In this document: piece by piece, positions 1-59,946 of the stretch
Layout of the letters: every line of letters starts with the position of its first letter
How positions within the stretch are numbered: the first letter of the stretch is position 1
Source: Firmicutes bacterium UBA3943
GTDB lineage: Bacteria; Bacillota; UBA4882; UBA10575; UBA3943
Length of the DNA: 64,000 nt
Assembly (NCBI GenBank): GCA_002385625.1
Contig: DGDV01000018.1
Location: forward strand, 16,570 to 80,569
Direction of reading: 5' to 3'
Program-made: the position numbers and the translations under genes
Notes under the pieces: generated by a model
The model's input: the letters and a program-made list of their open reading frames with translations, nothing else
Databases searched by the model: none
What the model was told of the DNA's origin: nothing

Positions 1-1408
1 CTCGCGTAAGAACGAGATGATCAACAACTTCCTCAAACCCGGCCTGGAGGATCTTTGTGTCTCTCGGACCACCTTCTCCTGGGGTATTCCGGTGCCCTTT
101 GACCCGAAGCATGTGGTCTATGTCTGGCTGGATGCTTTGACCAATTACATTACGGCCTTGGGTTATCCAGGGGACAATACCCTGATGGAAAAATTCTGGC
201 CCGCCGACGTTCACCTGGTGGGGAAGGAGATCGTCCGCTTCCACACCATTATCTGGCCCATCCTCCTGATGGCCTTGGGTTTGCCCCTGCCGAAGAAGGT
301 CTTTGGCCACGGGTGGCTGATCCTGGAAGGTGGAAAGATGTCCAAGTCCAAAGGGAATGTGGTGGATCCGGTGACCCTGGTTAACCGCTATGGCTTGGAT
401 GCTGTCCGATATTATCTGTTGCGGGAAGTTCCCTTCGGGTCGGATGGTGTATACTCCGAAGATGCATTAATCTTGCGGATTAATACGGATCTGGCCAACG
501 ATCTAGGCAATTTGCTGCACCGCAGCCTTTCCATGATTGAAAAATTCAACGGCGGAGTCGTGCCAGCACCAGGGGCCCTTGTCGAGCTTGATCGTGACTT
601 GATCCGGGCGGCGGAGGCCTGCGGAGCGAAGGTGGCCCAGCACATGGAGGAACTGACGATCTCCGATGCCGTGATGGCCATTATGGATCTGGTTGGACGG
701 GCCAACAAATATATTGATGAAGCAGCTCCGTGGGCGTTGAATAAAGCCGGTAACCGGGAGCGATTGGAGACCGTGCTTTATACCATGGCCGAAGTTTTAA
801 GACTGGTGGCGGTGTTGTTGACCCCCTTCCTGGTGGAGACGCCGGGCCGGATCTGGGAACAGTTGGGCCTGGACGGCAAACCGGTGGACGCCGGCTGGGA
901 TCAGGGGATCCGTTGGGGTGGCTTCCCGGCGGGAACGAAGGTGAAGAAGGGCGATCCCATCTTCCCGCGGATTGAGGTGGAAAAGGAGGACCAGGCTGCG
1001 CCTGCCAAGACTGAACCGGCCCAAGCCCAACAGGCTCAACAGGCCAAGGAGAAGGCCGTCCCTGCGCCCCAGGATGGCGCTGCCGGGTTAATCGCTATTG
1101 ATGAGTTTGCCCGCATTGATTTGCGTATTGCCAAGGTGTTGGCTGCCGAGAAGATTGAGGGTGCGGATAAGTTGCTAAAACTGCAAATCCGCCTGGGCGA
1201 GGAGGAACGCCAGCTGGTGGCGGGCATTGCCCAGTATTACCGGCCGGAAGACTTGGTGGGCACTGAGATTGTGGTGGTGGCCAACCTCAAGCCGGCCAAG
1301 TTGCGGGGAGTGCTTTCTCAAGGGATGCTCCTAGCCGCGTCGGATGGGGAGAAGCTGACCTTGCTCCGCCCGGAACAACCCATTAAGGATGGTGCAAAAG
1401 TTCGATGA
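1..1408 (+). CDS. metG: Methionyl-tRNA synthetase, C-terminal part; the 5' end lies outside the window
   Basis: KMSKS motif (GGKMSKSKGN), anticodon-binding region, and a C-terminal EMAP/tRNA-binding domain (LLKLQIRLGEEERQLVAGIAQYY). The ORF runs open from the window edge. Confidence 0.95.
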   Translation, partial: SRKNEMINNFLKPGLEDLCVSRTTFSWGIPVPFDPKHVVYVWLDALTNYITALGYPGDNTLMEKFWPADVHLVGKEIVRFHTIIWPILLMALGLPLPKKVFGHGWLILEGGKMSKSKGNVVDPVTLVNRYGLDAVRYYLLREVPFGSDGVYSEDALILRINTDLANDLGNLLHRSLSMIEKFNGGVVPAPGALVELDRDLIRAAEACGAKVAQHMEELTISDAVMAIMDLVGRANKYIDEAAPWALNKAGNRERLETVLYTMAEVLRLVAVLLTPFLVETPGRIWEQLGLDGKPVDAGWDQGIRWGGFPAGTKVKKGDPIFPRIEVEKEDQAAPAKTEPAQAQQAQQAKEKAVPAPQDGAAGLIAIDEFARIDLRIAKVLAAEKIEGADKLLKLQIRLGEEERQLVAGIAQYYRPEDLVGTEIVVVANLKPAKLRGVLSQGMLLAASDGEKLTLLRPEQPIKDGAKVR

Positions 1409-2193
1409 TCCGTTGGACGGATACCCATACCCACCTCAACGACGAGGTTTACGAGGGGGAGTTGGAGCAAATCTTGGCGCGCATGGAACAGGCCGGTGTG
1501 GGCCGGGCCATTGTGGTTGGCTATGACCTGGCTTCGGCGCAAAAAGCCGTGGAACTGGCCCGTCTCCATGCCCCCCTTTATGCGGCTGTGGGGGTTCACC
1601 CCCACGAGGCCAAGGATTATACGGAGGAGACTGAAGCCGAGCTAGGAAAACTGCTTCAGGAACCCAAGGTGGTGGCCCTGGGCGAGGTAGGCCTGGATTA
1701 CCACTATGATCATTCTCCCCGCGGGGTGCAGCAGGAGGTCTTCCGCCGGCAGATCCGGCTGGCCCGGGTCCATAAAATGCCGTTGATCATTCACGAGCGG
1801 GAGGCCACCAAGGATGCGCTGGACATTCTCCGAGAGGAGCATGCCGAAGAGGTCGGAGGAGTCTTTCACTGCTTTTCCGGGAGTGTAGAAACGGCTAAGG
1901 AGGCCTTGGCGCTGAACTTCTACATCTCAATTGCGGGGCCGGTGACCTTTGCCAATGCCCGGCGGCTGCCGCAGGTTATTCTCGAGATTCCTGCGGACCG
2001 GTTAATGGTAGAGACTGACTGTCCATATTTGACGCCCCATCCGTATCGGGGGAAACGGAACGAGCCGGCTTTTGTAACCTATGTGGGGGCAGAGGTCGCC
2101 CGGATCCTGGGTATTGCCCCGGAGGAGCTGGCCCGCCTAACCTGGGAGAACGCCGACCGTTGTTTCAGATGGACCCCGAGGAGGGAGAGTTAA
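1405..2193 (+). CDS. tatD: TatD-family metal-dependent hydrolase (YabD-like)
   Basis: N-terminal DTHTHL motif, typical TatD length, ATGA overlap with the metG stop. The metG-tatD order is conserved in Firmicutes. Confidence 0.9.
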
Positions 2194-9330: not shown

Positions 9331-10365
9331 ATGATGGACGGGGGGATGGGTATGTTCGACCTGAAACAGAGAAAGAAATTGCTGCCTGCTTTGACTTTAC
9401 TGGCTTTATTAGTGCTTTTCGCTGTTGCTGTCCTGGGGGAAGAGGAGGAGTGTAAGGAAAACCCCTTGTTGCCCCAGGAATATGATGTTTGGAGCTGTGG
9501 CTGGTCACCCGACGGGTCACGCTTGGTCTTCTCCGGGAAGATGAAAGGGGAAGATTCCACCCGAATGCGGACTTGGCTTTGGACGCCGCCGGACGGGACC
9601 CCGGTTATACTTACTAATACCGAATCTTTGATGGACTTTTCCCCCAGTTGGTCGCCGACGGGGGACTGTATCTTGATGGTTCGGCGTGTCCTGGCCAACG
9701 GCGAGCCCAATGGGGTGGGGCTTTCCTCCTCTATTTGGTTGAAGTCCCTGGTGGGTGGGGCAGGCTTCCAATTGACCAACGGCCATGAGGACCGGGATCC
9801 GGCATGGTCCCCCGACGGAAAAACCGTGGTATTCGTCAGGGGCAACGGCCCATATGTGGCAAATCTATTCCTCATCGACAGGGACGGCAAGAACCTGCGG
9901 CAATTGACGAAAGGCGCCGATAATTTGTTAGCCTTTCCCTGTTGGGGCAGTGACGGCTGGATCTACTATACCAGGTTGCAAATCCGCCACCGGGATATTA
10001 CGGTGAATGCCAAAACTTTTTCCACCATGGAAATTGAGAAGGGTTGGATTGAAAGGATTAACCCCGCCACCGGCCAGGTGGAAGTGGTGGTTAAGGATGA
10101 GTACGATAACCGGGCGCCAGCCCTTTCGCCGGATGGGTGTTATCTGGCCTTTGTCTCCACCCGCGGCGCGTTGCAGCCTACAGGGCGGGTTTATGACCGG
10201 GGGGCCTTGTTGGTTATGGACTTGAAAGACCGGAGTGTCCGGGTGCTTAGCGACAAGGCTGGCCTGAACGGCGCCCCGCCGACCTGGTCGCCCAAGGGTG
10301 ACAGCATCAGTTACTTTTCCTTCCGCAATATTCGGCCGGGCCTTTGGGTGGTGCCCTTCAATTAA
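9331..10365 (+). CDS. Secreted or membrane-anchored PD40/WD40-like beta-propeller protein (TolB-like repeats)
   Basis: Signal anchor (KKLLPALTLLALLVLFAVAVLG) and repeated W/SPDG motifs (WSPDGSRLVF, WSPTGDCI, WSPDGKTVVF, LSPDGCYLAF, WSPKGDSI). ATG at 9331 follows GGAGGG. Confidence 0.75.
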   Translation: MMDGGMGMFDLKQRKKLLPALTLLALLVLFAVAVLGEEEECKENPLLPQEYDVWSCGWSPDGSRLVFSGKMKGEDSTRMRTWLWTPPDGTPVILTNTESLMDFSPSWSPTGDCILMVRRVLANGEPNGVGLSSSIWLKSLVGGAGFQLTNGHEDRDPAWSPDGKTVVFVRGNGPYVANLFLIDRDGKNLRQLTKGADNLLAFPCWGSDGWIYYTRLQIRHRDITVNAKTFSTMEIEKGWIERINPATGQVEVVVKDEYDNRAPALSPDGCYLAFVSTRGALQPTGRVYDRGALLVMDLKDRSVRVLSDKAGLNGAPPTWSPKGDSISYFSFRNIRPGLWVVPFN

Positions 10366-10535: not shown

Positions 10536-11513
10536 ATGGAAGAGCCGAGAGTTCTTAAGTTTTTACGGGATTGTGACGACCGGTTTGTCTCGGGGGAAGA
10601 GATGGCGGAGGCGCTTAGCATCTCCCGGGCGGCGGTTTGGAAGGATATTGAGAATCTGCGCCGGTTGGGTTATGCTGTCGCAGCCATCCCCAACCGGGGC
10701 TACCGTTTGGTGGCTAAGCCTGACTGTTTATATCCCTGGGAAGTGCAGGCAGATTTGGCCACCAGCTTTGTGGGGCGGGAGCTTTTTTACTTTCGGGAGA
10801 CGGATTCCACGAACAACCAGGCCAAGAAACTATTGAAGACCGCCACGCCGGCGGAGGGTGCAGCGGTGGTGGCCGAAACCCAGCTGGCCGGGAAGGGGCG
10901 TTTGGGCCGACAGTGGTTCTCACCGGCAGGAGCGGGTATATGGACGAGTATAATCCTTCACCCAGCCTTGCCCGTCGCGGACATGGCCAAGTTGACGATC
11001 ATGGCGGCGGTGGCTGTACGCCGGGCTGTTTTGGAAGCAACAGGGCTGGAGTTGGTTATTAAGTGGCCCAATGACCTGTTGTGGGCCGGGAGGAAGGTCT
11101 GCGGCATCCTGGCGGAGTTGGGCGGAGAGGTGGACCGGTTAGCCTTTTTGGTGGTGGGGATCGGTTTGAATGTCAATCAGGTGGCAGAGGATTTCCCGGA
11201 GGAGCTGCGGGAGACGGCGGGGTCCTTGCGTTTGGCCGCCGGGCGGTCTTTGGACCGGGTGGTGTTGTTGCAGGCCCTCTTTAGGCAGGTGGAGGCCTGT
11301 TACCTGCAGGTACTCAAGGAAGGTTTTGCGGGTATTCTGGAAGATTGCCGGCGGTACTCGGCGACGTTGGGCCAGCGTTTGACAGTGCGGGAAGGGGCGA
11401 GGACCCTGACCGGAGTGGCCCGTGGGATTGGGGATGATGGCGGGCTGCAGTTGGAGCTAACAACGGGTGAGTTGGTAACGGTGTACTCTGGGGATACAAC
11501 ATTATCCGTCTGA
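10536..11513 (+). CDS. birA: Bifunctional biotin-[acetyl-CoA-carboxylase] ligase and bio-operon repressor
   Basis: N-terminal winged HTH (ISRAAVWKDIENLRRLGY), GKGRLGRQW biotin-binding loop, C-terminal SH3-like domain. ATG at 10536 follows GGGAGGTG. Confidence 0.92.
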   Translation: MEEPRVLKFLRDCDDRFVSGEEMAEALSISRAAVWKDIENLRRLGYAVAAIPNRGYRLVAKPDCLYPWEVQADLATSFVGRELFYFRETDSTNNQAKKLLKTATPAEGAAVVAETQLAGKGRLGRQWFSPAGAGIWTSIILHPALPVADMAKLTIMAAVAVRRAVLEATGLELVIKWPNDLLWAGRKVCGILAELGGEVDRLAFLVVGIGLNVNQVAEDFPEELRETAGSLRLAAGRSLDRVVLLQALFRQVEACYLQVLKEGFAGILEDCRRYSATLGQRLTVREGARTLTGVARGIGDDGGLQLELTTGELVTVYSGDTTLSV

Positions 11514-11561
11514 GGAAACTGCGGGCGGACAGGCTGTTATGGCCGGTAGATCAATTATCGG

Positions 11562-12134
11562 ATGAGGGTGGGGATGGTAATGACGGGTAGAACCAAGGAT
11601 TTGGTCTTGGTGGGGTTGTTCGCGGCCTTGACGGCGGTGGGGGCGTTGCTCCAAGTGCCCTTCTTGCCGGATGTGCCCATGACCTTGCAGACCCTCTTTG
11701 TCGTCATGGCAGGGTTGCTGCTGGGCCCCAAGGGCGCTTTTTATAGCCAGGTGGTTTATCTTCTCTTGGGATTGGTAGGGCTTCCCGTCTTTGCCAAAGG
11801 CAGGGGTGGTTTGGCTCATGTGGCCTCACCGACCTTCGGGTTTTTGTTGGGCTTTATCCTGGGTGCACCTGTCACAGGTTGGGTAGACCGTTTTTTACAC
11901 CGCTGGCCCTTGGCCTTGCGGTCGCTGGCGGCGGCGGCAGCCGGTATCGCTGTAATTTATGGGCTGGGAGTACCTTGGGTTCTTCTCTTCCGCACCTTTA
12001 CCGGTAATGCCATCCCCTTTGGTGTCTTTATCGTCTCGCTGGTCCCGATCATGCTGGGGGATGTGCTGAAGATTATTGCCGCTGGCTTTTTGCGCCCTGC
12101 CATCGTCAAGGCCTTGCCGGAGCTGGAAAGGTGA
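11562..12134 (+). CDS. bioY: Biotin transporter S-component
   Basis: Polytopic membrane protein with a BioY-like N-terminus (KDLVLVGLFAALTAVGA) directly after birA. The exact start is uncertain (11562, 11574 or 11580). Confidence 0.85.
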   Translation: MRVGMVMTGRTKDLVLVGLFAALTAVGALLQVPFLPDVPMTLQTLFVVMAGLLLGPKGAFYSQVVYLLLGLVGLPVFAKGRGGLAHVASPTFGFLLGFILGAPVTGWVDRFLHRWPLALRSLAAAAAGIAVIYGLGVPWVLLFRTFTGNAIPFGVFIVSLVPIMLGDVLKIIAAGFLRPAIVKALPELER

Positions 12135-12161
12135 AGGCAGATCGAAAAAACTAAAGTAAGA

Positions 12162-12202
12162 GAATAGCCACTGCAGCTGGTGCTGTGTGGCTATTGATTT
12201 TT
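12162..12202. terminator. Hairpin terminator between the convergent bioY and immunity genes
   Basis: AATAGCCAC / GTGGCTATT stem followed by GATTTTTT on the plus strand, with an A-rich tract on the other side. Confidence 0.75.
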
Positions 12203-12270
12203 TGTGATTTTAGCAGTTTGTGGTTACTCTTTTAAAATAACTTCACCATTGGTTATTAACGCTAAATTGA

Positions 12271-12573
12271 TTATTCTTCTTTTTCCTGCACAGCTTCTTT
12301 TAATTGTGTTGCAACTTTTTTCAACCATTCAATTGGGCTAACTCCAAGGGCAGGGAAGTAGATCTCAGCATAGTTCTGGATGAATTCATTCTTTTCTTGT
12401 TCTGTAATGCTACTTTGGATGAATTCATCAATATAAGAAATTATTTCCAACAACCATTGCCTGTCTTCTTCTTCGATAATTTCATTAAGAGCAGATTCGG
12501 GCGATTCAATATCTTGATGGAATGTTCCGCCAAGAAAGTTCTTAAGTTCGTTTTTTAAATTTTCTAAATCCAT
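12271..12573 (-). CDS. Small acidic CdiI-like immunity protein (putative cognate immunity)
   Basis: 100 aa, very acidic, with the N-terminal motif FLGGTFHQD that I associate with CDI-system immunity proteins. GGGAGGA ribosome-binding site; starts 17 nt after the toxin stop; very AT-rich. Confidence 0.7.
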   Translation of the reverse strand: MDLENLKNELKNFLGGTFHQDIESPESALNEIIEEEDRQWLLEIISYIDEFIQSSITEQEKNEFIQNYAEIYFPALGVSPIEWLKKVATQLKEAVQEKEE

Positions 12574-12590
12574 TTGAATTCCTCCCTATG

Positions 12591-13907
12591 TTATTTCGGA
12601 TAGCCTGTTAAAATATAATAACCTCCGGCTTTATCACTTTTAAGAACTATTCTAGCGTTATATAAGTTTTTGACAACTGTTGAGCCTTGAGCTACACCTC
12701 GCCCTAGAATTGTTGGTGGTTGGCTTTGATAATCTAGTACTAGTCTACCTTTAGCTAGCCAATCTTTTATTATTGAAGTATTTTTTTGGTCAGTTAAAAC
12801 ATTATAGGTTACTTCTTCAGCAATTTCGAGGTTAGTAAAAGAAGATGCACCTGGTAACTTGGGATTCTTTTGCACTCTTTCAATCAATTCAGCATCTGAT
12901 TTTCCTACGTGCCGACTGATTAAATGTCCACCTTTAGCTTCATGTGTCTGTAAACCGCCACCTGGAGCAATTTTCTTAGTTTTGCCCGTATCAATGTTAT
13001 TACTTTTTGATACTGTTGTGGGCTTTTCTGCCTTCGAAGTTGTTGCCACCACCTCCGCCCCTGGTGCGGCTTCTGCCTGAGCGGTTGCGGCAGTTGCAGC
13101 GGTGGTGGCTTTGACGAATGCAAGGATGCCGGGGATGCCGGAACCCTTGGTTTCCTTGGGATGAATGTTGTTGTACTCCAGTTTTATTCGCGGGGCGGTT
13201 ATTTTCATCCTCTTTTCTCCGGCAGAGACCCGGTACCACTCGGCTAAGTCGCACTTGACCGTTTTGCTCCCGACTGTCCTGCGGCCTCCGTCAAGCATGG
13301 CGTCCTTTGCCCCGTACCCGTCGGCGATCAGTTGCCCGATGCGGTCCTGGATGACAGGGTAGTTGTTGCCCAATAGTTCCCGGCCGATGCTGGTGGTTAA
13401 GTCTAGTTCCAATTGGCCGTAGACGGTCTCCCGGTCCCAGCGAATCAGGCTAAAGCTGATACTGAAGGGAAGCCTGGGGGTTGTCGTACAGAACCAATCC
13501 TGCTGGAAAGCAGAAGACTGGTCCGGCTCGTTGCCGGTAAAATATGGGCGGACCCATTGGTTGTCTTCAAAGAGAGCATGGAGGTCCAATGTTTTCTGCT
13601 TCAATCCTGCCAGTTCATCCAGGGAGTCCAAATGGAAGAGGTCTAACCGGTAGACTACATGGAGCAGGCTGCCGTCCTTTTGGGGAACCGGGACATAGCA
13701 GTGCTCCCTGTCTCCGAAACAATGTTGCTGGATGACCAACTCAAAGCGGCCCAGACCATCCACGGAGTCGTAGGTTTCGGTGTAACCCAGGACTGCCGCT
13801 TCTTTGACGGAGATCTTCCGCATGGTCTGACCTGCATAGACAATTTCCAACTCCACATCGTCCCGGGTAACCGGCTGGTGCTTCCGGTACTTGGTGGCCC
13901 AGTTCAT
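12591..13907 (-). CDS. Polymorphic-toxin-like protein: unknown N-terminal domain, Ala/Thr-rich linker, C-terminal RNase A-like (CdiA-CT-type) toxin domain
   Basis: The C-terminus reads THEAKGGHLISRHVGKSDAELIER...NARIVLK...GGYYILTGYPK (His-x10-Arg, then a terminal Thr-x-Tyr). The linker is ATTAATAATAQAEAAPGAEVVATTSKAEKPTT. No signal peptide, LXG, Rhs or FHA repeats. The 5' boundary is uncertain (see findings). Confidence 0.7.
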   Translation of the reverse strand: MNWATKYRKHQPVTRDDVELEIVYAGQTMRKISVKEAAVLGYTETYDSVDGLGRFELVIQQHCFGDREHCYVPVPQKDGSLLHVVYRLDLFHLDSLDELAGLKQKTLDLHALFEDNQWVRPYFTGNEPDQSSAFQQDWFCTTTPRLPFSISFSLIRWDRETVYGQLELDLTTSIGRELLGNNYPVIQDRIGQLIADGYGAKDAMLDGGRRTVGSKTVKCDLAEWYRVSAGEKRMKITAPRIKLEYNNIHPKETKGSGIPGILAFVKATTAATAATAQAEAAPGAEVVATTSKAEKPTTVSKSNNIDTGKTKKIAPGGGLQTHEAKGGHLISRHVGKSDAELIERVQKNPKLPGASSFTNLEIAEEVTYNVLTDQKNTSIIKDWLAKGRLVLDYQSQPPTILGRGVAQGSTVVKNLYNARIVLKSDKAGGYYILTGYPK

Positions 13908-14248
13908 GAAAGCTGTGTCACCCGGGGAGATCTTGCCGATGATGATGGCAAGCCGGGCGACGGGGAAGTAAATGACCTTTTTCTCTTGTCGATTGGTTTG
14001 AACTGGTGGTGGGCTGGTTTGTGCATCTGCAGGATCGGATCTTGCAGATGTAGGATGAAATAGTTCATCTGCAGAAATTGATCTTGTAGATGGAGAATGG
14101 GAGCCTGCATTTGCAGAATTAGATCTTGCAATTGATGAATTAGATCCTGCAACTGCAGAATTCGATTCTGCAATTGAAGAATTCTCCGGTGCAGATGTAA
14201 ATTTGTTTTCTGCAGGTGTAGGAAGTTTTTCTGCAGCTTTGGCGCCAA
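13904..14248 (-). CDS. Hypothetical 114-aa Leu/Gln heptad-repeat ORF; may not be a real gene
   Basis: TTG start 5 nt after the HD gene stop, and its stop overlaps the toxin ATG (ATGA). It translates to repeated (I/F)L(Q/H)(L/M)Q(D/N)x heptads. The overlapping frame is equally open, so this call is weak. Confidence 0.3.
   Translation of the reverse strand: MAPKLQKNFLHLQKTNLHLHRRILQLQNRILQLQDLIHQLQDLILQMQAPILHLQDQFLQMNYFILHLQDPILQMHKPAHHQFKPIDKRKRSFTSPSPGLPSSSARSPRVTQLS
14006..14236 (-). repeat. Eleven degenerate 21-bp tandem repeats (CTGCAG-containing units)
   Basis: Minus-strand units such as TTGCAGGATCTAATTCATCAA and TTGCAAGATCTAATTCTGCAA. The period is exactly 21 nt and two of the three frames are open. 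Confidence 0.9.
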
Positions 14249-17724: not shown

Positions 17725-18189
17725 ATGCCCAAATTACGTAAAGCGCTCATCCAAGACGCCGAGAATATTCACAGGTTGATCAACAGTTATGCCAATCAGG
17801 GATTGATGCTGGCTAGGTCCAGGAATATGGTTTACGAATGTATCAGGGAATTCACCATCGCTGAGGATGACAACGGCGAGTTTTTGGGTGTGGGCGGCCT
17901 TCATATTATCTGGGAGGATCTGGCGGAGATCCGGGCCTTGGCCATTGAACCAAAGGCCGTCGGCCGGGGGTTGGGCAAATCCATTGTGGAAGCCCTGGTG
18001 GAAGAGGCCAAGCAACTGGGGATCAAACGGGTTTTCTCCTTGACCTACCAGAAGGAGTTCTTTGAACATTGTGGCTTTCGCCTGATTTCCAAAGAAGAGA
18101 TGCCGACGAAAGTCTGGAAGGAGTGTATTAATTGCCCCAAATTCCCCAACTGCGACGAATTGGCCATGATTCGTGATCTGGAGCAATGA
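17725..18189 (+). CDS. ArgA-type (short N-acetylglutamate-synthase-like) GNAT acetyltransferase
   Basis: IRKA..D...I..LI, LARSR, AEIRALAIEPKAVGRGLGKSIVE (acetyl-CoA-binding Q/RxxGxG/A motif), FSLTYQKEFFEHCGF. ATG at 17725 follows AAAGGGGAG. Confidence 0.8.
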   Translation: MPKLRKALIQDAENIHRLINSYANQGLMLARSRNMVYECIREFTIAEDDNGEFLGVGGLHIIWEDLAEIRALAIEPKAVGRGLGKSIVEALVEEAKQLGIKRVFSLTYQKEFFEHCGFRLISKEEMPTKVWKECINCPKFPNCDELAMIRDLEQ

Positions 18190-19817
18190 ACGGGCAAGGC
18201 CAGCGTAAACAGAAGGGGAAGTACTATACCCCCCAAGCGGTGGTAGACCTTTGTTGGGAAGTCTTGCGTGCCAAGATTGCTCCCGCGACCTTGCGGAGTT
18301 TTCAAGTGGTGGATCCCGCTGCCGGGGACGGGGTTTTCCTGCAGGAAGCCTGTGCCCGGGGGTGGATCACGGGACAGCTGGCCACCGGGGTGGAACTTTA
18401 TCCCGGCGAAGCGTCCCGGGCAGGTGTTTTGTTCCGCGTCGTAAAGGGCAATGGCTTAATCGACCGGCCTGAAGAAGATTTTGTCGCCGGCCGCTTTGAT
18501 CTGGCGGTGGGTAACCCACCCTACGGCGGAGAGGGCCTCCGCGATCTGTGCCGGAGTTGGGAGAAGCCAGCCGCCCGGGCGATGTTGCGGCAACTCTTTT
18601 ACCGCTACGATCTGTGCCGTTTTTATTTGGGGCTTGACCTGCCGGAACAACAAGAGTTCAATAGTTGGCTCCGGGGGGCGGCGGGGCAGCGGGCCCTGGC
18701 TAAACTGGGGAGGTGCCCCATCGAGCTCTTTTTCTTGGAACGCTTCATCTGTCTCTGCCGGGAAGGGGGCTGGTGCGCGGTGGTCCTGCCCGAGGGGCTG
18801 CTGGCCAATGAACGGATGCGGTCCTTGCGGGAATGGGTGGAGGAGCGGGCCGCCCTCCTGGCGGTGGTGGCCTTGGACCGCAAGACCTTCCAACGGGAGG
18901 GGACAGCGGCCCGGACCGCCCTGGTCTTTCTGCGGCGGAAACCCTGCCCGGTGGAGGAGGACAACGAAAAGATCTACTTTGCTGCCCCCGCATATGAGGA
19001 GCAGGCCATGGCGGCCACCGAATACTTGGCCCGGGTGGGCCGGGAACTTGGCGGGGGAGAGAAGCCTGTCACCGGGCGGTGGGTGGAGCGGACCCAGGTG
19101 GCCGGGAACCGTTGGGACCCGGGTTTTTGGCATCCCCGCTTTCGGCAGGTTCTTTGCGTCCTTGACAAAGCGCCCCGGCTTGGCGATTTTATCACCCTGC
19201 TGACCTACGGGCCCATTCTCCCGGGTCGGCGGCCGGAACCGGATGAAGGTGGCATTCCTGTGATTGGCCAATCATCCTTTACTGAAGCCGGGTTGGACTT
19301 AAGTAAAGCCATACGGGTGGCGGCGGGTTCTGCCTTTGATCCCCCCAGGAGCCGTGTGCGCCGGGGCGATCTCTTGTTCCCCCGTTCCGGTGAGGGGTCC
19401 TTGCTTCGCTTTAAAGCCGGGGTCTACGACAGTGATCAGCCGGCCAATGTCAGCTGCTTTGTGGATTTGGTGCGCTTAAGCGGGATCGAACCCTATTATG
19501 TTTGGTTGGTCTTGAAAACCCGGTTCCTGCGGGAACAGATTCTCCGCTTGCAAAACGGGGTGGGCACGCCCAACTTGAATTTCCGGGAAATCAGGGAGCT
19601 GCGGATTCCCTGGCAGGACGCGGCGGAACAAGCGGCCTGGCGCGGGGAGTACTTCCGCCGGGTGGCCCCCCTGCACCTGGCCCGCCTGCAGGCCCTAGAT
19701 CCGCTGGAACGGAGCCGGTTGGGGGAGTTGGCCGATGCCGCCTTCCGCCGCTTGGTGCAGGAGTTGGAGGAGACCCTCAACACCCGCTATTTCCCGCGGG
19801 ACAAAAGCAACGGTTAA
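18186..19817 (+). CDS. Gamma-class N6-adenine DNA methyltransferase with a fused HsdS-like target-recognition domain (orphan)
   Basis: GKYYTP N-terminal motif, motif I VVDPAAGDGVFL, motif IV VGNPPYG. The C-terminal half looks like a type I S-subunit TRD (LGDFITLLTYGP..; LQNGVGTPNLNFREIRELRIPW) followed by helical conserved-region-like sequence. ATGA overlap with the GNAT stop. Confidence 0.8.
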   Translation: MNGQGQRKQKGKYYTPQAVVDLCWEVLRAKIAPATLRSFQVVDPAAGDGVFLQEACARGWITGQLATGVELYPGEASRAGVLFRVVKGNGLIDRPEEDFVAGRFDLAVGNPPYGGEGLRDLCRSWEKPAARAMLRQLFYRYDLCRFYLGLDLPEQQEFNSWLRGAAGQRALAKLGRCPIELFFLERFICLCREGGWCAVVLPEGLLANERMRSLREWVEERAALLAVVALDRKTFQREGTAARTALVFLRRKPCPVEEDNEKIYFAAPAYEEQAMAATEYLARVGRELGGGEKPVTGRWVERTQVAGNRWDPGFWHPRFRQVLCVLDKAPRLGDFITLLTYGPILPGRRPEPDEGGIPVIGQSSFTEAGLDLSKAIRVAAGSAFDPPRSRVRRGDLLFPRSGEGSLLRFKAGVYDSDQPANVSCFVDLVRLSGIEPYYVWLVLKTRFLREQILRLQNGVGTPNLNFREIRELRIPWQDAAEQAAWRGEYFRRVAPLHLARLQALDPLERSRLGELADAAFRRLVQELEETLNTRYFPRDKSNG

Positions 19818-20046
19818 AGGAGATTTACCGGACCCGTGGAATACTAACTCAACCCAAGACGGTAGGCAAGGGGAGCCGATCACCGGGGCGTCTTTGGCTT
19901 CTCCCGGAAACGGGCATGCTATTATATAATTGAACTTGATTTATTTGGTCAGTCGGGGTCGCTTTGTTGCACCGGGGTTCTCCGTTTTGCCCCGCCAGAA
20001 TATCTTTTTGCCTTACACAACGATTATCCAGAAAGATGGGACGTTT

Positions 20047-22338
20047 ATGAATCCACCAAAGCGTACTTTCCGCCAATATAAATTAGATGATTTCCAGTAC
20101 GAAGCCGTTTGCCGGCTGCTGGAGGGCCATTCCGTCCTGGTTTCGGCGCCCACGGGTGTGGGCAAGACGCTGATTGCCGACTACTTAATTGAAGAGGCCA
20201 TCGCCAAGGGTGACCGGATTATCTATACCGCGCCCATCAAGGCCCTGTCCAACCAGAAGTTTAAGGAGTTCAAGGCGCTTTACGGTGAGGAACGGGTGGG
20301 GATCATCACCGGTGATGTGGTGATCCGGCCCGAGGCCGATGTGACCTTGATGACGACGGAAATCTTCCGCAACATCCTGCACCAGGACCCGGGGCGTTTG
20401 GCCGGAATCTCCCATGTCATCTTCGATGAGATCCACTACCTCTCCGATGAGGACCGGGGGACGGTCTGGGAGGAGTCTATCATCTTCATGCCCGAGGGTA
20501 TGCGCCTGCTGGGCCTGTCGGCCACCATCCCCAATGCCCGGGAGCTGGCGGATTGGATCAGTGAGATCAAAGGCCACCGGGTGGTGGTCATCACTAAACT
20601 GGAGCGGGCGGTGCCCCTGGAACACTATGTTTATACCCGCCGGACCGGGCCGACGACCCTTAAGGAATTGGTCCGGGCGGAGGAGGAGCGCCGGAAGAGG
20701 GAAGAAAAAGCAGGGAAGAACGGCCGACGGGATTTTCGCCGCCTCCGCAAGGGGGAGACTACCCACCGGGACCTGGTGCGAACGGTGGTGAAGGCCCATG
20801 GCCTGCCCTGTTTGTACTTTGTCTTTAGCCGACGGATGTGTGAGGAGAAGGCCTATGAGCTGGCCCAGGACCAGGACTTTCTCAAGCCTGAGGAGAAGGA
20901 GACGGCGGAGAAGATCATCGATCAGATGGTCCGGGACTTTGGCCTGGACTCCTGGCGGACCATGGGGCATGTGAAGAATCTGCTGTTGAAAGGAATCGCC
21001 TTCCACCACGCCGGCCTCTTGCCGGCCCATAAGGAGATTGTGGAGGCACTGTTTGGGCAGAACCTGGTCCGGGTAATGTATGCCACCGAAACCTTTGCCG
21101 TTGGCATCAATTATCCCGTTCGTACCGTCTGTTTTGACGCTCCCACCAAATGGGACGGGGTGACCTTCCGACCCATGAGTACGCTGGAATACTTCCAAAT
21201 GGCCGGGCGAGCGGGCCGGCGGGGCATTGACGAACGGGGTTTTGTTTACATCCTGGCGGATCTGGACCGGTACCCCCCGGAGGATTTTCCCAGCACCGAC
21301 CCGGCGGATATTGAGGAGTTGCGGAGCCGTTTCAACCTGTCCTACAACTCGGTCTTAAATCTGAACAAGAACCATTCCCCGGAGGAGATCAACCGCATTC
21401 TCAACCAGAACTTTGCTACCTTCCAGGCCCGTAACGACAAGGTGGTTCTTGAGCGGCAGTTGCACCGCCTCCAAAAGAAGTTTGAGAACATGGCCGGGGA
21501 ATACTGCGGCGACTGGAGTACCGTAGCCTGCCCCCGCCTGCGGGAGGAGACCCAGCGGCGCATCCGCCGGCAGGAACGGAAACTCCGCTATATCAAGGGC
21601 CGCCGGGCCCGGCAGGCGATTATGGATGAGATTAAGCAAATGAAACAAACCCTGCTGGCCGTCCCTGTCCGGGACTGCGACGCGGCCAGGGTTGAAGACT
21701 GCCAGAGGAAAAATCAACAGTTCCAAGAGGTGCTTAAGGCCAAGGAGGAGCTGGAACAACAGATTGCCAATATCAAGGTGGCGGGACGATTCGATGACGA
21801 CCTGTCGCTAAAAGAAGCGATCTTGGAAGAGATTGACTATTTGAAAGACGGAAAACTCCTGCCCAGGGGGGAGTTTGCCTCCCAGATCTATGCCCAGGAG
21901 TTGCTCATTACCGAACTTTATTTTAACGGGTTGTTTCATGAGTGGACGGAAGATCAGATCAACGCCGTGATCGTAGCGGTGGACTATGAGCCGCGCAAGG
22001 GGGAATTTCTCCCGCGCAGCCTCCCCTATGACCCCAAGCCCATCCGCCGCATCATCCGGCAATTGTTATACCACTACGGGGTGGAGGAACGGGATGTGCG
22101 CTTCCATCCCAGTCTCTCCAACCTGGCCTTCAAATGGAGCCAGGGCTGTGAGTTCTTTGAGTTGTTGCAGGATGCGCCCCACCTGCAAGAGGGCGATATT
22201 GTCGCCGCCTTCCGGCGAGGCATCGACCTGCTGCGGCAGATCCGCGGGGCCTGTCTGCAGGATGACCCGATTTTGGCCGGAAAACTTAAAAATTGCATGG
22301 ACAAAATGGACCGTGATCTTGTTCAGGTCAATCTGTAA
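20047..22338 (+). CDS. Ski2/HelY-like DEAD/DEAH-box superfamily 2 helicase
   Basis: Motif I APTGVGKT, motif II DEIH, motif III SAT, motif VI QMAGRAGRRG, charged coiled-coil insertion, DSHCT-like C-terminus. ATG at 20047 chosen (MNPPKR). Confidence 0.85.
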   Translation: MNPPKRTFRQYKLDDFQYEAVCRLLEGHSVLVSAPTGVGKTLIADYLIEEAIAKGDRIIYTAPIKALSNQKFKEFKALYGEERVGIITGDVVIRPEADVTLMTTEIFRNILHQDPGRLAGISHVIFDEIHYLSDEDRGTVWEESIIFMPEGMRLLGLSATIPNARELADWISEIKGHRVVVITKLERAVPLEHYVYTRRTGPTTLKELVRAEEERRKREEKAGKNGRRDFRRLRKGETTHRDLVRTVVKAHGLPCLYFVFSRRMCEEKAYELAQDQDFLKPEEKETAEKIIDQMVRDFGLDSWRTMGHVKNLLLKGIAFHHAGLLPAHKEIVEALFGQNLVRVMYATETFAVGINYPVRTVCFDAPTKWDGVTFRPMSTLEYFQMAGRAGRRGIDERGFVYILADLDRYPPEDFPSTDPADIEELRSRFNLSYNSVLNLNKNHSPEEINRILNQNFATFQARNDKVVLERQLHRLQKKFENMAGEYCGDWSTVACPRLREETQRRIRRQERKLRYIKGRRARQAIMDEIKQMKQTLLAVPVRDCDAARVEDCQRKNQQFQEVLKAKEELEQQIANIKVAGRFDDDLSLKEAILEEIDYLKDGKLLPRGEFASQIYAQELLITELYFNGLFHEWTEDQINAVIVAVDYEPRKGEFLPRSLPYDPKPIRRIIRQLLYHYGVEERDVRFHPSLSNLAFKWSQGCEFFELLQDAPHLQEGDIVAAFRRGIDLLRQIRGACLQDDPILAGKLKNCMDKMDRDLVQVNL

Positions 22339-58156: not shown

Positions 58157-59107
58157 GTGGTAAAGGTGGCCAAAAAAATTAAGTATCTTGTGCCGGCAGT
58201 GCTGTTGTTCTGTGTGGGCTGGAGCTACCGGATGCCGTCATACCTAAATCCGGGTGTTTACCAATTGTCCCCGCGAACCACCTGGTCTTCACTGCCGGCT
58301 TCTGCTTTTAAACTGGTTAAGGATGATATTTCCTCCGCCGAACCCAAGGATCTTAAGGCCGCACCACAGATCAAAGCTGGTCAGAAGGCTGTTTACGCCT
58401 CCTTCACCTTGGGTAATGCGGGGCAAAAAGTGAATTACCTTGCGATTTTGGATGAAAAGGCAAAATGGCAAAGCTTGTATGTGGATGTTAACGGTGATAA
58501 CTGCTTTGATGAGCAGGACCGGGTGGACCTTTCTTTCGAGGAGCAAGTCCGGGGAAACCGTCTCAAATATACAATTGAGCCTGTTGTTATTCCCGTCTCC
58601 TACAAAAATTCGGCGGGCCGGATCATCCGGAAGAAGCTCCAGGTTGATATTTATTTATTTTATAACCCCAATAACAGTCTTGTGGAAACGATGCATCGCG
58701 TGGTTACCTGGTTTGAGGGGGAAGGACGCTTTTCTCCGAAAAAAGGCCTGGAATATCCGGTCCGGTTTGCCCTGGTGGATCTAAACGGTGACGGGAATTT
58801 TAACAATTTCAGTGAAGACGCCGTTTATATTGATCTTAACTACGACGGGGTCTTTGGTCAAAGGGAAAGGGTGACATTCAGAGCTTTATTTGATCTGCAA
58901 ACTGCCACCGGTGAGAATAAGCAATACCGGCAGTATGTCTTCCCCTGGCCCTACCGGCTGGCGGTTGTTCCGGTAGCTGAGTGGGAAAGCAGCAGTTTTT
59001 ACGATCCGGTTGATGATGCGGAATTCCCGGTAGAAACGGTGAACCCTCCCGCCGTAGCTGAACCGGGCGCCGATAAAGAGGCATTGCCCAGGGGGGTGAA
59101 AAAGTGA
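58157..59107 (+). CDS. Hypothetical membrane-anchored protein with DxDxDG-type loops (paralog A)
   Basis: Signal anchor (YLVPAVLLFCVGW); loops VDVNGDNCFDEQD, VDLNGDGNFNNF, IDLNYDGVFG. Confidence 0.55.
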   Translation: MVKVAKKIKYLVPAVLLFCVGWSYRMPSYLNPGVYQLSPRTTWSSLPASAFKLVKDDISSAEPKDLKAAPQIKAGQKAVYASFTLGNAGQKVNYLAILDEKAKWQSLYVDVNGDNCFDEQDRVDLSFEEQVRGNRLKYTIEPVVIPVSYKNSAGRIIRKKLQVDIYLFYNPNNSLVETMHRVVTWFEGEGRFSPKKGLEYPVRFALVDLNGDGNFNNFSEDAVYIDLNYDGVFGQRERVTFRALFDLQTATGENKQYRQYVFPWPYRLAVVPVAEWESSSFYDPVDDAEFPVETVNPPAVAEPGADKEALPRGVKK

Positions 59108-59946
59108 AGCGCCGTTGGCTTATTTTCTTGGTTTTCGGGTTGTTGTTTGCCATAGGCGCCGGTAATCGGCCGGTGCTAACACCTGGGATCTATCCGGTTC
59201 AACCGGGCGGGAACGGTTGGGATCAGGTAGTCTTTGATAAGAAGTCGAATTATCGTCCCGGCATCAAATATTTCACCGCGATTCAGCCCAGCGATGTCCG
59301 TTTGGAACTCCCGAAAGAACGGTTTGCCTCCTTCAGTTTCGGCCGTTTTTCCCTGGGAAGCGCAGGAACCGAGTATACCATGGTTATTGGCAGTCAAAAC
59401 AGGTACTTCTTTGATACTTTATATATCGATCTGGACCGGGATGGGGTAATTACCGCCCGGGAAGAGGTGAAGATGAACGAACGACAAAGTGTTGCCCTGG
59501 GGTATACGGTGCAGGAGTTGGATGCCGAAGCCAGGTTGACGGTGGCCTACCGAACCTCAACGGGCAAGATCGTTGAACATCCCTTGGATATTCGCCTCAT
59601 CTTTTACTACGGGAAATTCTCTGATGAACCCATGGTCTTTTATATGGTCCAGAATACCACCTTTCTTCAGGGGACGGGTCTTTTGAACGGAAAGCCGCTC
59701 TCATTTGCCCTTGTGGATGGTGATGGCAACGGCCGGTACAATGATTGGGGTGATGACTTCCTTTTTTATGACAAAAACGGAGACGGAAAGTATCACTTTG
59801 GCAAGGAGAGTCAGGTACTTAACCCCTTGCATGACTTGAAGATCGGGCAGAACAACGGGATCTACCGCCTTATTGTTCCGGTGTTCCCGGCGAAGATTGG
59901 ACTGATTGCTGCCGATGCTGATTACAAAATGGCGGACTTTGAATAA
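59104..59946 (+). CDS. Hypothetical membrane-anchored protein with DxDxDG-type loops (paralog B)
   Basis: Signal anchor (WLIFLVFGLLFAIGA); loops IDLDRDGVITARE, VDGDGNGRYNDW, YDKNGDGKYHF. Colinear similarity to the upstream ORF and a GTGA start-stop overlap. Confidence 0.55.
   Translation: MKRRWLIFLVFGLLFAIGAGNRPVLTPGIYPVQPGGNGWDQVVFDKKSNYRPGIKYFTAIQPSDVRLELPKERFASFSFGRFSLGSAGTEYTMVIGSQNRYFFDTLYIDLDRDGVITAREEVKMNERQSVALGYTVQELDAEARLTVAYRTSTGKIVEHPLDIRLIFYYGKFSDEPMVFYMVQNTTFLQGTGLLNGKPLSFALVDGDGNGRYNDWGDDFLFYDKNGDGKYHFGKESQVLNPLHDLKIGQNNGIYRLIVPVFPAKIGLIAADADYKMADFE

Follow-up and report, generated by a model that had tools for sequence, protein, structure and literature searches.

In a 64,000-nucleotide (nt) stretch of DNA from Firmicutes bacterium UBA3943 (contig DGDV01000018.1; the whole stretch is called the window here), two minus-strand open reading frames (ORFs) of 438 and 100 amino acids (aa) are predicted from their sequences, with little room for doubt, to be a toxin-immunity pair. 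The larger protein consists of an RNase A-like C-terminal domain joined to an N-terminal carrier, and the genes with this carrier very likely form a polymorphic-toxin family with cassette swapping. In structural models, the first ~135 residues of the carrier probably fold like an Hcp/tail-tube protein. For the pair as a whole, we lean slightly towards an explanation in which Firmicutes have a tail-like delivery system, as yet undescribed, and the pair encodes a polymorphic effector of it that resembles Hcp-ET proteins. Both domains, toxin and immunity, are ordinary in kind, of textbook type; the apparent novelty lies in the carrier family, in its connection with orphan spike genes and in its use as the scaffold of no fewer than five toxin types.

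The original prediction, made from the DNA letters without database searches, had placed a 438-aa ORF and a 100-aa ORF on the minus strand of the window; both ORFs were found at their positions, as were the peptides that it quoted. The pair comprises the following features.

12591..13907, minus strand: annotated toxin ORF of 438 aa, made up of a truncated carrier, an Ala-rich junction, a linker and an RNase A-like toxin
12597..12929, minus strand: RNase A-like toxin domain, aa 327-437 (Pfam PF18431 and PDB 5E3E_B match)
12909-12911, 12876-12878, 12606-12608 and 12600-12602, minus strand: functional residues His333, Arg344, Thr434 and Tyr436 of the toxin domain, respectively
12271..12573, minus strand: immunity gene, 100 aa, CdiI_2 family (Pfam PF18593; phrog_16822)
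12580..12586, minus strand: Shine-Dalgarno (SD) sequence GGGAGGA of the immunity gene, within the 17-nt spacer 12574-12590 (direct sequence reading)
12163..12195, minus strand: stem-loop AATAGCCAC...GTGGCTATT with a T-rich tract after it; the immunity gene lies on one side and the convergent bioY on the other (RNAfold of 12135-12270)

Employing profile hidden Markov models (HMMs), the search that had been proposed for both ORFs, we obtained matches well over the curated cut-offs of Pfam. RNAse_A_bac (PF18431) matched the 438-aa ORF with E=1.5e-24 and 87.5 bits (cut-off 27), and the profile was covered fully (positions 1-113 of 113). Among PDB chains, the toxin C-terminus matched 5E3E_B, the CdiA-CT of Yersinia kristensenii, with E=6e-19 and chain residues 1-112 aligned. 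In the HMMER alignment, His333, Arg344 (+11), Thr434 (+101) and Tyr436 correspond to His175, Arg186, Thr276 and Tyr278 of CdiA-CT(Ykris) with identical spacing; the roles of these four residues in CdiA-CT(Ykris) have been validated by mutagenesis (PMC5435912). The original prediction had counted a His-x10-Arg pair and a terminal Thr-x-Tyr 101 residues after the His, which is arithmetically exact, and its identification of this as the active-site layout of the Y. kristensenii toxin was borne out by both the chain and the profile. The nearest relatives of the C-terminus are from Bacilli (Lihuaxuella thermophila, Bacillus velezensis and B. subtilis; 46-54% identity), and one Bacillus protein among them is annotated as a WXG100 target of a type VII secretion system (T7SS). 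Since RNase A-like toxins of Gram-positive bacteria, borne on type VII effectors, have already been published (PMC5435912) and the closest relatives are in Bacilli, the RNase warhead is unsurprising.

CdiI_2 (PF18593) matched residues 8-91 of the 100-aa protein with E=1.6e-18 and 67.7 bits (cut-off 26.7), and PHROGs assigned the protein to phrog_16822 (E=4.4e-34). As had been read from the sequence, the gene follows a 17-nt spacer with GGGAGGA, and its product is very acidic (pI 4.25; 23 D+E versus 8 K+R) and includes FLGGTFHQD. The label of a contact-dependent inhibition (CDI)-type immunity protein held at the level of the Pfam family; against PDB chains the protein, being too diverged, gave no sequence match. 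Downstream, the stem-loop at 12163..12195 is a probable terminator, and a consensus terminator scan did not call it. A promoter-like TTGTCA-16-TAGAAT lies at 12649-12676 on the minus strand, still inside the toxin gene near its 3' end and ~75 nt upstream of where the immunity gene starts. This site could drive toxin-independent expression of the immunity gene, and as the region is AT-rich, the evidence for it is weak.

The N-terminal ~280 aa, here called the full carrier, are the constant part of the family. With the N-terminal 300 residues as the query, 5.8 billion proteins yielded no more than 11 clusters, all from anaerobic digester or biogas metagenomes, with an N-terminal identity of 64-99% and with the Ala-rich ATAQAEAA in common. 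An exhaustive HMM search of 1.84 billion representative proteins likewise returned only 11 carrier proteins, including distant Endonuclea_NS_2 relatives; a profile of the Hcp-like domain added one new cluster from the index of 5.8 billion proteins, and a metagenome scan for the carrier yielded six loci, all of known types. No relative of the carrier was found in 185,579 GTDB species genomes, nor was there a credible match to it in Pfam, NCBIfam, PHROGs or PADLOC.

Five types of C-terminus occur on this one carrier: RNAse_A_bac, DUF6883, a NucA/NucB DNase, Endonuclea_NS_2 and one without a Pfam match. The small ORF downstream covaries with them, the pairs being RNase/CdiI_2, DUF6883/DUF4926, NucAB/DUF2625, no-Pfam/DUF7674 and Endonuclea_NS_2/YezG-like. 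Of the partners, CdiI_2 and YezG-like are named immunity families, and an immunity role of DUF4926, DUF2625 and DUF7674 is suggested by position. The metagenome-assembled genomes (MAGs) with the locus-tag prefixes GX391_ and PLI94_ each hold the window protein and the paralogue P0003; it follows that two or more carrier genes, differing in warhead, are present in the organism. The C-terminus of P0003 (residues ~345-455; 11030-11368 of locus L007) has no Pfam match, but it sits where the toxin is found in other members and is followed by a DUF7674 gene (11365-11733). Within the organism of the window, the two are thus a candidate for a further toxin-immunity pair, as yet undescribed.

The variable part of these genes is exchanged as a cassette, and the following features delimit it in the window.

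12150..13052, no strand assigned: low-GC swappable cassette of linker, toxin C-terminus, immunity gene and 3' flank (composition profiles; end of DNA identity to locus L013)
13053..13088, minus strand: recombination junction, with ATAQAEAA (aa 274-281) at nt 13065-13088 (protein alignment and BLASTN)

The cassette showed a GC content of 34-40% in 200-nt intervals, versus 54% for the genome. GC content dropped from ~57% to ~34% near 13000 and recovered near 12150; the 1-kb bin 12001-13000 was the lowest in the window (38.5%), and every other bin lay at 47-62%. As indicated by BLASTN, DNA similarity between loci ended at the junction in the window (13053) and in loci L010 (10966), L014 (6043) and L013 (3053). 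L013 is the window's own locus, with the same HAD, HD, repeat-ORF and toxin genes and 98% DNA identity down to 13053, and past the junction it carries DUF6883 and DUF4926 in place of RNase and CdiI_2. L010 and L014 were 98.7% identical up to the junction and 100% identical downstream, with unrelated cassettes (946 bp versus 1,087 bp) in between. There are, in sum, two loci with two alleles each, and the breakpoints lie at the ATAQAEAA junction. Between the window and L013 we counted 1 substitution outside 13162-13060 and 22 inside, and the 22 convert the window sequence to the type of locus 2. Because these substitutions are confined to this interval and are of the locus-2 type, they point to a gene-conversion tract that begins in the conserved 3' end of the carrier. 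Replacement of cassettes at a conserved junction is a hallmark of polymorphic toxins (PMC3482391), and the marks of such toxins sensu Zhang et al. (2012), namely variable C-termini, a covarying downstream gene and recombination at a junction with a GC break, were all found.

Directly after the DUF6883/DUF4926 and NucAB/DUF2625 cassettes lies the C-terminal end of an IS3/rve-type transposase (L013, 3900-4052; L010, 11833-12025; L014, 7131-7243). Metagenome contigs break at this IS3-like transposase end, and since they end at the remnant, a repeated insertion sequence is suggested. The IS3-like element may help to move cassettes between loci.

The carrier was modelled with AlphaFold2 (AF2). The model of the full-length carrier had a predicted local distance difference test score (pLDDT) of 68 and a predicted template modelling score (pTM) of 0.71, and it was predicted to be mainly beta-strand rather than a helical bundle. 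In the window the carrier is divided as follows.

13143..13907, minus strand: conserved carrier module as annotated, aa 1-255 (alignments, AF2 model, Foldseek and TssD)
within 13143..13907, minus strand: aa 1-~90, corresponding to residues 48-135 of the Hcp/tail-tube-like domain in full-length relatives (alignments)
within 13143..13907, minus strand: aa ~148-255, second subdomain, no fold match (pLDDT 54 when modelled alone)

Employing Foldseek, we obtained Hcp proteins as the top PDB matches (6BDC, 7YW0 and 7FCF). The best matches comprised Hcp1 from Flavobacterium johnsoniae, Hcp5 from Bacteroides fragilis and other Hcp proteins of type VI secretion systems (T6SSs), as well as a component of a Streptomyces contractile injection system and phage baseplate or hub proteins, with a probability of 0.97-1.0, a target-normalised TM score of 0.53-0.58 and an E-value of only ~6e-3; among the viral structures of BFVD, the model matched tail tube, gpD/hub and Dit-N proteins. 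When members of the family were scanned singly against Pfam, TssD was the only recurring family (three of the seven; best E=8.7e-5). By sequence criteria, the carrier is outside the Hcp/TssD family. The case for an Hcp fold is made by three weak, independent lines, which are structure, sequence and gene neighbourhood. The second subdomain (full-length residues ~183-290) gave only noise in the fold search when modelled alone; it probably packs on the first domain. An internal duplication of the carrier, as in the double tube domain of gp27/VgrG, was considered and rejected as unsupported (hhalign probability 0.2).

The third line comes from the neighbourhoods of relatives in other contigs. P0017, a carrier relative without a toxin (locus L099), lies directly between a DUF4280 gene (PAAR-like, E=4e-36) and a VgrG-like gene. 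The latter matched Phage_GPD above the cut-off, Phage_base_V below it and the VgrG of PDB 8GRA with E=3e-6. The set at 5775-10205 of L099 reads DUF4280, the Hcp-like P0017, a 206-aa unknown protein, the VgrG-like protein (470 aa), a 196-aa unknown protein and Imm11, and upstream of it are genes for FHA (two), PP2C, TPR and Sel1 proteins. Neither a sheath nor a baseplate gene was found on this 10-kb contig, nor was either seen on any other contig. At locus L104, a carrier-DUF6883 toxin is located 8 kb from a gene encoding DUF4280, a hydrophobic segment and a TNT NADase toxin. This DUF4280-TNT gene (719-2065, minus strand) has a strong ribosome-binding site and is followed by two small ORFs of 32% GC (489-812 and 55-411), which are candidate immunity genes. 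For T6SSs, polymorphic toxins headed by Hcp, VgrG or PAAR have already been described, with firmicutes listed in their distribution (Zhang et al. 2012, PMC3482391). In their passages on such genes, two surveys report DUF4280 beside Phage_GPD in Firmicutes lacking core genes of T6SSs or extracellular contractile injection systems, and speculate on an unknown phage-like system (PMC8651086; PMC5349215).

Export of the toxin had been left unexplained in the original prediction. The window still offers no machinery for it, and the lead gained here is the rare, probably Hcp-like polymorphic carrier. Because the carrier is predicted to fold like Hcp, the toxin may be regarded as a 'specialised tube-protein effector', like Hcp-ET of Gram-negative T6SSs. 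Its delivery would fall to a spike-and-tube apparatus of phage-tail type, with a VgrG-like and a DUF4280/PAAR-like protein, encoded elsewhere in the genome. A neighbouring cell that lacks the immunity protein would have its RNA degraded by the RNase, and the CdiI_2 protein would shield the producer and its kin. We rate tail-like delivery of the carrier toxins a little short of an even chance. It is more doubtful that sporeforming Firmicutes have a phage-tail-derived, T6SS-like route for antibacterial toxins, in which the carrier would be the tube component, the third member of the orphan VgrG-like and DUF4280 sets and a scaffold for RNases, DNases and other warheads. The Hcp-like protein between DUF4280 and VgrG-like genes, together with swappable nucleases elsewhere, provides a testable gene set for the speculation on a phage-like system. 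The carrier is also a new head domain by which anaerobic-digester communities can be mined for toxins and their immunity proteins, for example the P0003 C-terminus with DUF7674.

Several known systems resemble the pair in part. Like CdiA-CT/CdiI of Y. kristensenii, it has a toxin that aligns over its whole length with the four residues kept, and an acidic CdiI_2 gene directly downstream; unlike CdiA/CdiB systems, it has neither the filamentous haemagglutinin body of CdiA nor a VENN motif nor CdiB, and its host is a Gram-positive-type sporeformer. The type VII (WXG100/LXG) RNase effectors of Bacilli share the kinship of the C-terminus, the phylum and the toxin-immunity logic (PMC5435912), whereas their heads are helical WXG100/LXG domains and the head here is beta-rich and probably Hcp-like. 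With Hcp-ET and the toxins headed by Hcp1, VgrG or PAAR, the family has in common a probably tube-like N-terminus, interchangeable nucleases, an immunity gene downstream and, in relatives, associated PAAR-like and VgrG-like genes (PMC3482391), but the carrier is below the threshold of Hcp/TssD models and has an extra region of ~150 residues. In contrast to Gram-negative T6SSs, no sheath, baseplate or ClpV was seen here, and the Firmicutes hosts have no outer membrane. Finally, L099 has exactly the orphan pair of DUF4280 (PAAR_H2) and Phage_GPD, and a long fusion of DUF4280 to a toxin, as described for that subtype, is present in L104. In their passages on these pairs, the surveys describe no tube component (PMC8651086; PMC5349215), whereas here an Hcp-like protein stands between the two genes and its homologues are polymorphic toxins.

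The 5' end of the toxin gene in the window differs from that of its homologues, and the sequence upstream of the annotated ATG includes two features.

13908..13982, minus strand: 25 codons in the toxin frame, KKVIYFPVARLAIIIGKISPGDTAF, with homology to residues 23-47 in the full-length paralogues; ATG, GTG and TTG are all absent from the frame upstream
14022..14183, no strand assigned: 21-bp repeat in ~9 units, the unit being an 18-bp palindrome, ATTCTGCA-NN-TGCAGAAT (Tandem Repeats Finder period 21/42; motif count)

The annotated ATG, accepted as the start of the 438-aa ORF in the original prediction, is not ancestral: homologues begin with MSD, 47 residues upstream of the annotated Met of the window. 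The toxin frame is open for ~130 codons upstream of this ATG, none of them a start codon, and the sole SD-like sequence available to the ATG is GGGTGA, which is weak and distant. A start at this position removes beta1-beta3 of the modelled Hcp-like domain, and judging from the model, the window allele may be crippled, and defective in delivery, if translated from there. The dN/dS of the upstream codons was 0.23-0.49, versus ~0.32 for the core; a selection test on the truncated allele was powerless because the window and L013 differ by a single substitution outside the conversion tract. The exact 438-aa protein was found on 19 public contigs from different digesters with unchanged neighbours, and the truncated allele is considered stable because of this identity.

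The palindrome motif had 9 matches versus 0.92 expected (~10-fold), seven of the nine in 14022-14161, its enrichment being limited to this place, and two repeat units are located upstream of each paralogue (L007, 9615-9653; L010, 9850-9888; L014, 4924-4962). From its sequence, the array looks like a putative set of operators to which a dimeric regulator would bind. Gene callers read through it and predict a heptad-like ORF of 114 aa (13904-14248), which shares an ATGA overlap with the toxin start. In the paralogues, just before the ATG, a hairpin with a 9-bp stem, GTTCCCACC-N14-GGTGGGAAC, has the SD sequence AGGTGGG of the carrier gene in its 3' arm (9966-9998 in both L010 and L007). This hairpin may exert translational control, and the element is deleted in the window allele. 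A search of Rfam with the upstream repeat and leader gave only a sub-threshold match to a plant miRNA, which is noise.

The locus L102 (JGI Ga0116255_10054332) has the upstream genes of locus 2 joined to the RNase/CdiI_2 cassette and bioY of the window, and a misassembly across the conserved carrier, giving a chimera, is almost certain; the contig cautions against an uncritical reading of P0025. P0025, a 485-aa 'full-length RNase' with an intact N-terminus, was treated as a chimera because its contig joins upstream genes of locus 2 to the bioY of the window.

A number of observations weigh against a tail-delivered toxin with an Hcp-like carrier. The TssD matches were all below the cut-off (best 20.9 bits versus 25.8, for P0020), with E=0.15 for the window-type carrier; the structural matches all had E-values of at least 1e-3, from an AF2 model built from 9 sequences; and profiles of the carrier or of its halves had no match among PDB sequences. 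Genes for a sheath, baseplate, VgrG or PAAR were seen on no contig of the window organism. The contigs that link the carrier to spike genes are from other organisms, L099 having 27% GC and the flanks of L104 ~47%, versus 54% here, and the DUF4280-TNT gene of L104 has an in-frame TAG at codon 30, which could reflect a pseudogene, a sequencing error or recoding. As for the toxin gene itself, the window allele is without the native leader, SD sequence and codons 1-22, its sequence running into the repeat array; frameshifted or split copies occur in other assemblies (P0012+P0023, P0011); and the only 'intact' version of the RNase, P0025, is the chimera described above.

The last of these points form the basis of another explanation, in which the allele of the window is decaying or disarmed: a deletion would have taken the leader and the first ~22 codons, no deliverable toxin would be made, and selection would keep mainly the immunity gene against kin that still deploy the RNase, as with orphan toxin/immunity modules in other polymorphic-toxin loci. 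We consider this unlikely, though well worth weighing; it concerns the window allele only and is compatible with the Hcp-ET-like explanation at the level of the family. The lack of a start codon in the upstream frame, where homologues start 47 residues earlier, the loss of the native SD sequence and hairpin leader in favour of an ATG behind the weak GGGTGA, the loss of beta1-beta3 from that ATG, the split and frameshifted copies, and an immunity gene with its own strong ribosome-binding site and promoter-like site are all in its favour. However, the 438-aa ORF is intact and identical on the 19 contigs from different digesters, the 25 upstream codons are still protein-like by their dN/dS, the ATGA overlap with the upstream ORF could permit translational coupling, and the truncated allele itself took part in a recent exchange of cassettes.

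The remaining explanations replace the mode of delivery. The carrier might be the receptor-binding or translocation domain of a self-contained bacteriocin like colicins or S-pyocins, released by lysis or sporulation-associated lysis of the mother cell and taken up without an injection machine. The layout of a constant N-terminus, a C-terminal nuclease, an adjoining immunity gene and operator-like repeats upstream resembles that of colicin and pyocin operons; the toxin has no signal peptide, three loci have no adjacent secretion genes, and the second subdomain of the carrier could bind a receptor. Yet no lysis gene adjoins the loci, the sole fold signal in the carrier is that of Hcp/tail-tube proteins, and a receptor-binding domain would not explain a toxin-less homologue between PAAR-like and VgrG-like genes; a bacteriocin is accordingly judged improbable. 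We give even less credit to an intracellular toxin-antitoxin or abortive-infection module, with the carrier as a sensor that frees a variable nuclease and the small protein as antitoxin. Cytoplasmic features and solitary two-gene loci among housekeeping genes would suit it, and PHROGs families match the toxin C-terminus and the immunity protein, but tblastn against 50,697 phage genomes and two IMG/VR scans (with the carrier and with the C-terminus) found nothing, and on these results a phage origin of the cassette was rejected too. Neither carrier, toxin nor immunity protein has a credible match in PADLOC, and an anti-phage defence role was likewise discarded. Moreover, the named partner families (CdiI_2, YezG-like and, in L099, Imm11) are interbacterial immunity types, and allelic replacement of cassettes at a conserved junction is characteristic of polymorphic toxins. 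Least credible, and in our estimate very improbable indeed, is a CDI (CdiB/CdiA) or type VII substrate with its machinery encoded outside the window. The C-terminal family was first described in CdiA, and a close Bacillus relative is the annotated WXG100 T7SS target, but CdiB/CdiA is an outer-membrane system, and membership of the whole protein in either system was rejected because the carrier, predicted to be mostly beta, has no match to two-partner secretion, FHA-repeat, VENN, LXG or WXG100 sequences.

These domain negatives agree with the original prediction. The N-terminal part of the toxin had no match in Pfam and NCBIfam, hence no FHA, LXG, WXG, Rhs or MuF domain; the VENN motif is absent from the toxin sequence; and with a maximum Kyte-Doolittle 19-residue mean of 1.25, neither a signal peptide nor a transmembrane helix was indicated in it. 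The host had been called a sporeformer, and SpoIID, Spo0A and SpoVS are present in the window. With Pfam annotation, the genes called in the window also include MetRS, TatD, MurB, BirA, BioY, RecA, RNase Y and a PASTA kinase, among others; all annotated genes are of housekeeping or sporulation type. No CdiB, T7SS, T6SS or other secretion or injection gene was identified in essentially the whole window, in which a few ORFs are without a Pfam match. The best identity of the neighbouring BirA was 45%, to a Peptococcia MAG.

Two other regions of the window were noted. At 58157-59946, two overlapping ORFs (316 and 280 aa) without a Pfam match at E<=1e-5 are located among housekeeping genes. At 18186-22338, a gene for a 543-aa protein with faint N6_Mtase/Eco57I matches adjoins one for a 763-aa DEAD/ResIII/DSHCT (Ski2-like) helicase, and this gene pair may be related to restriction or defence.

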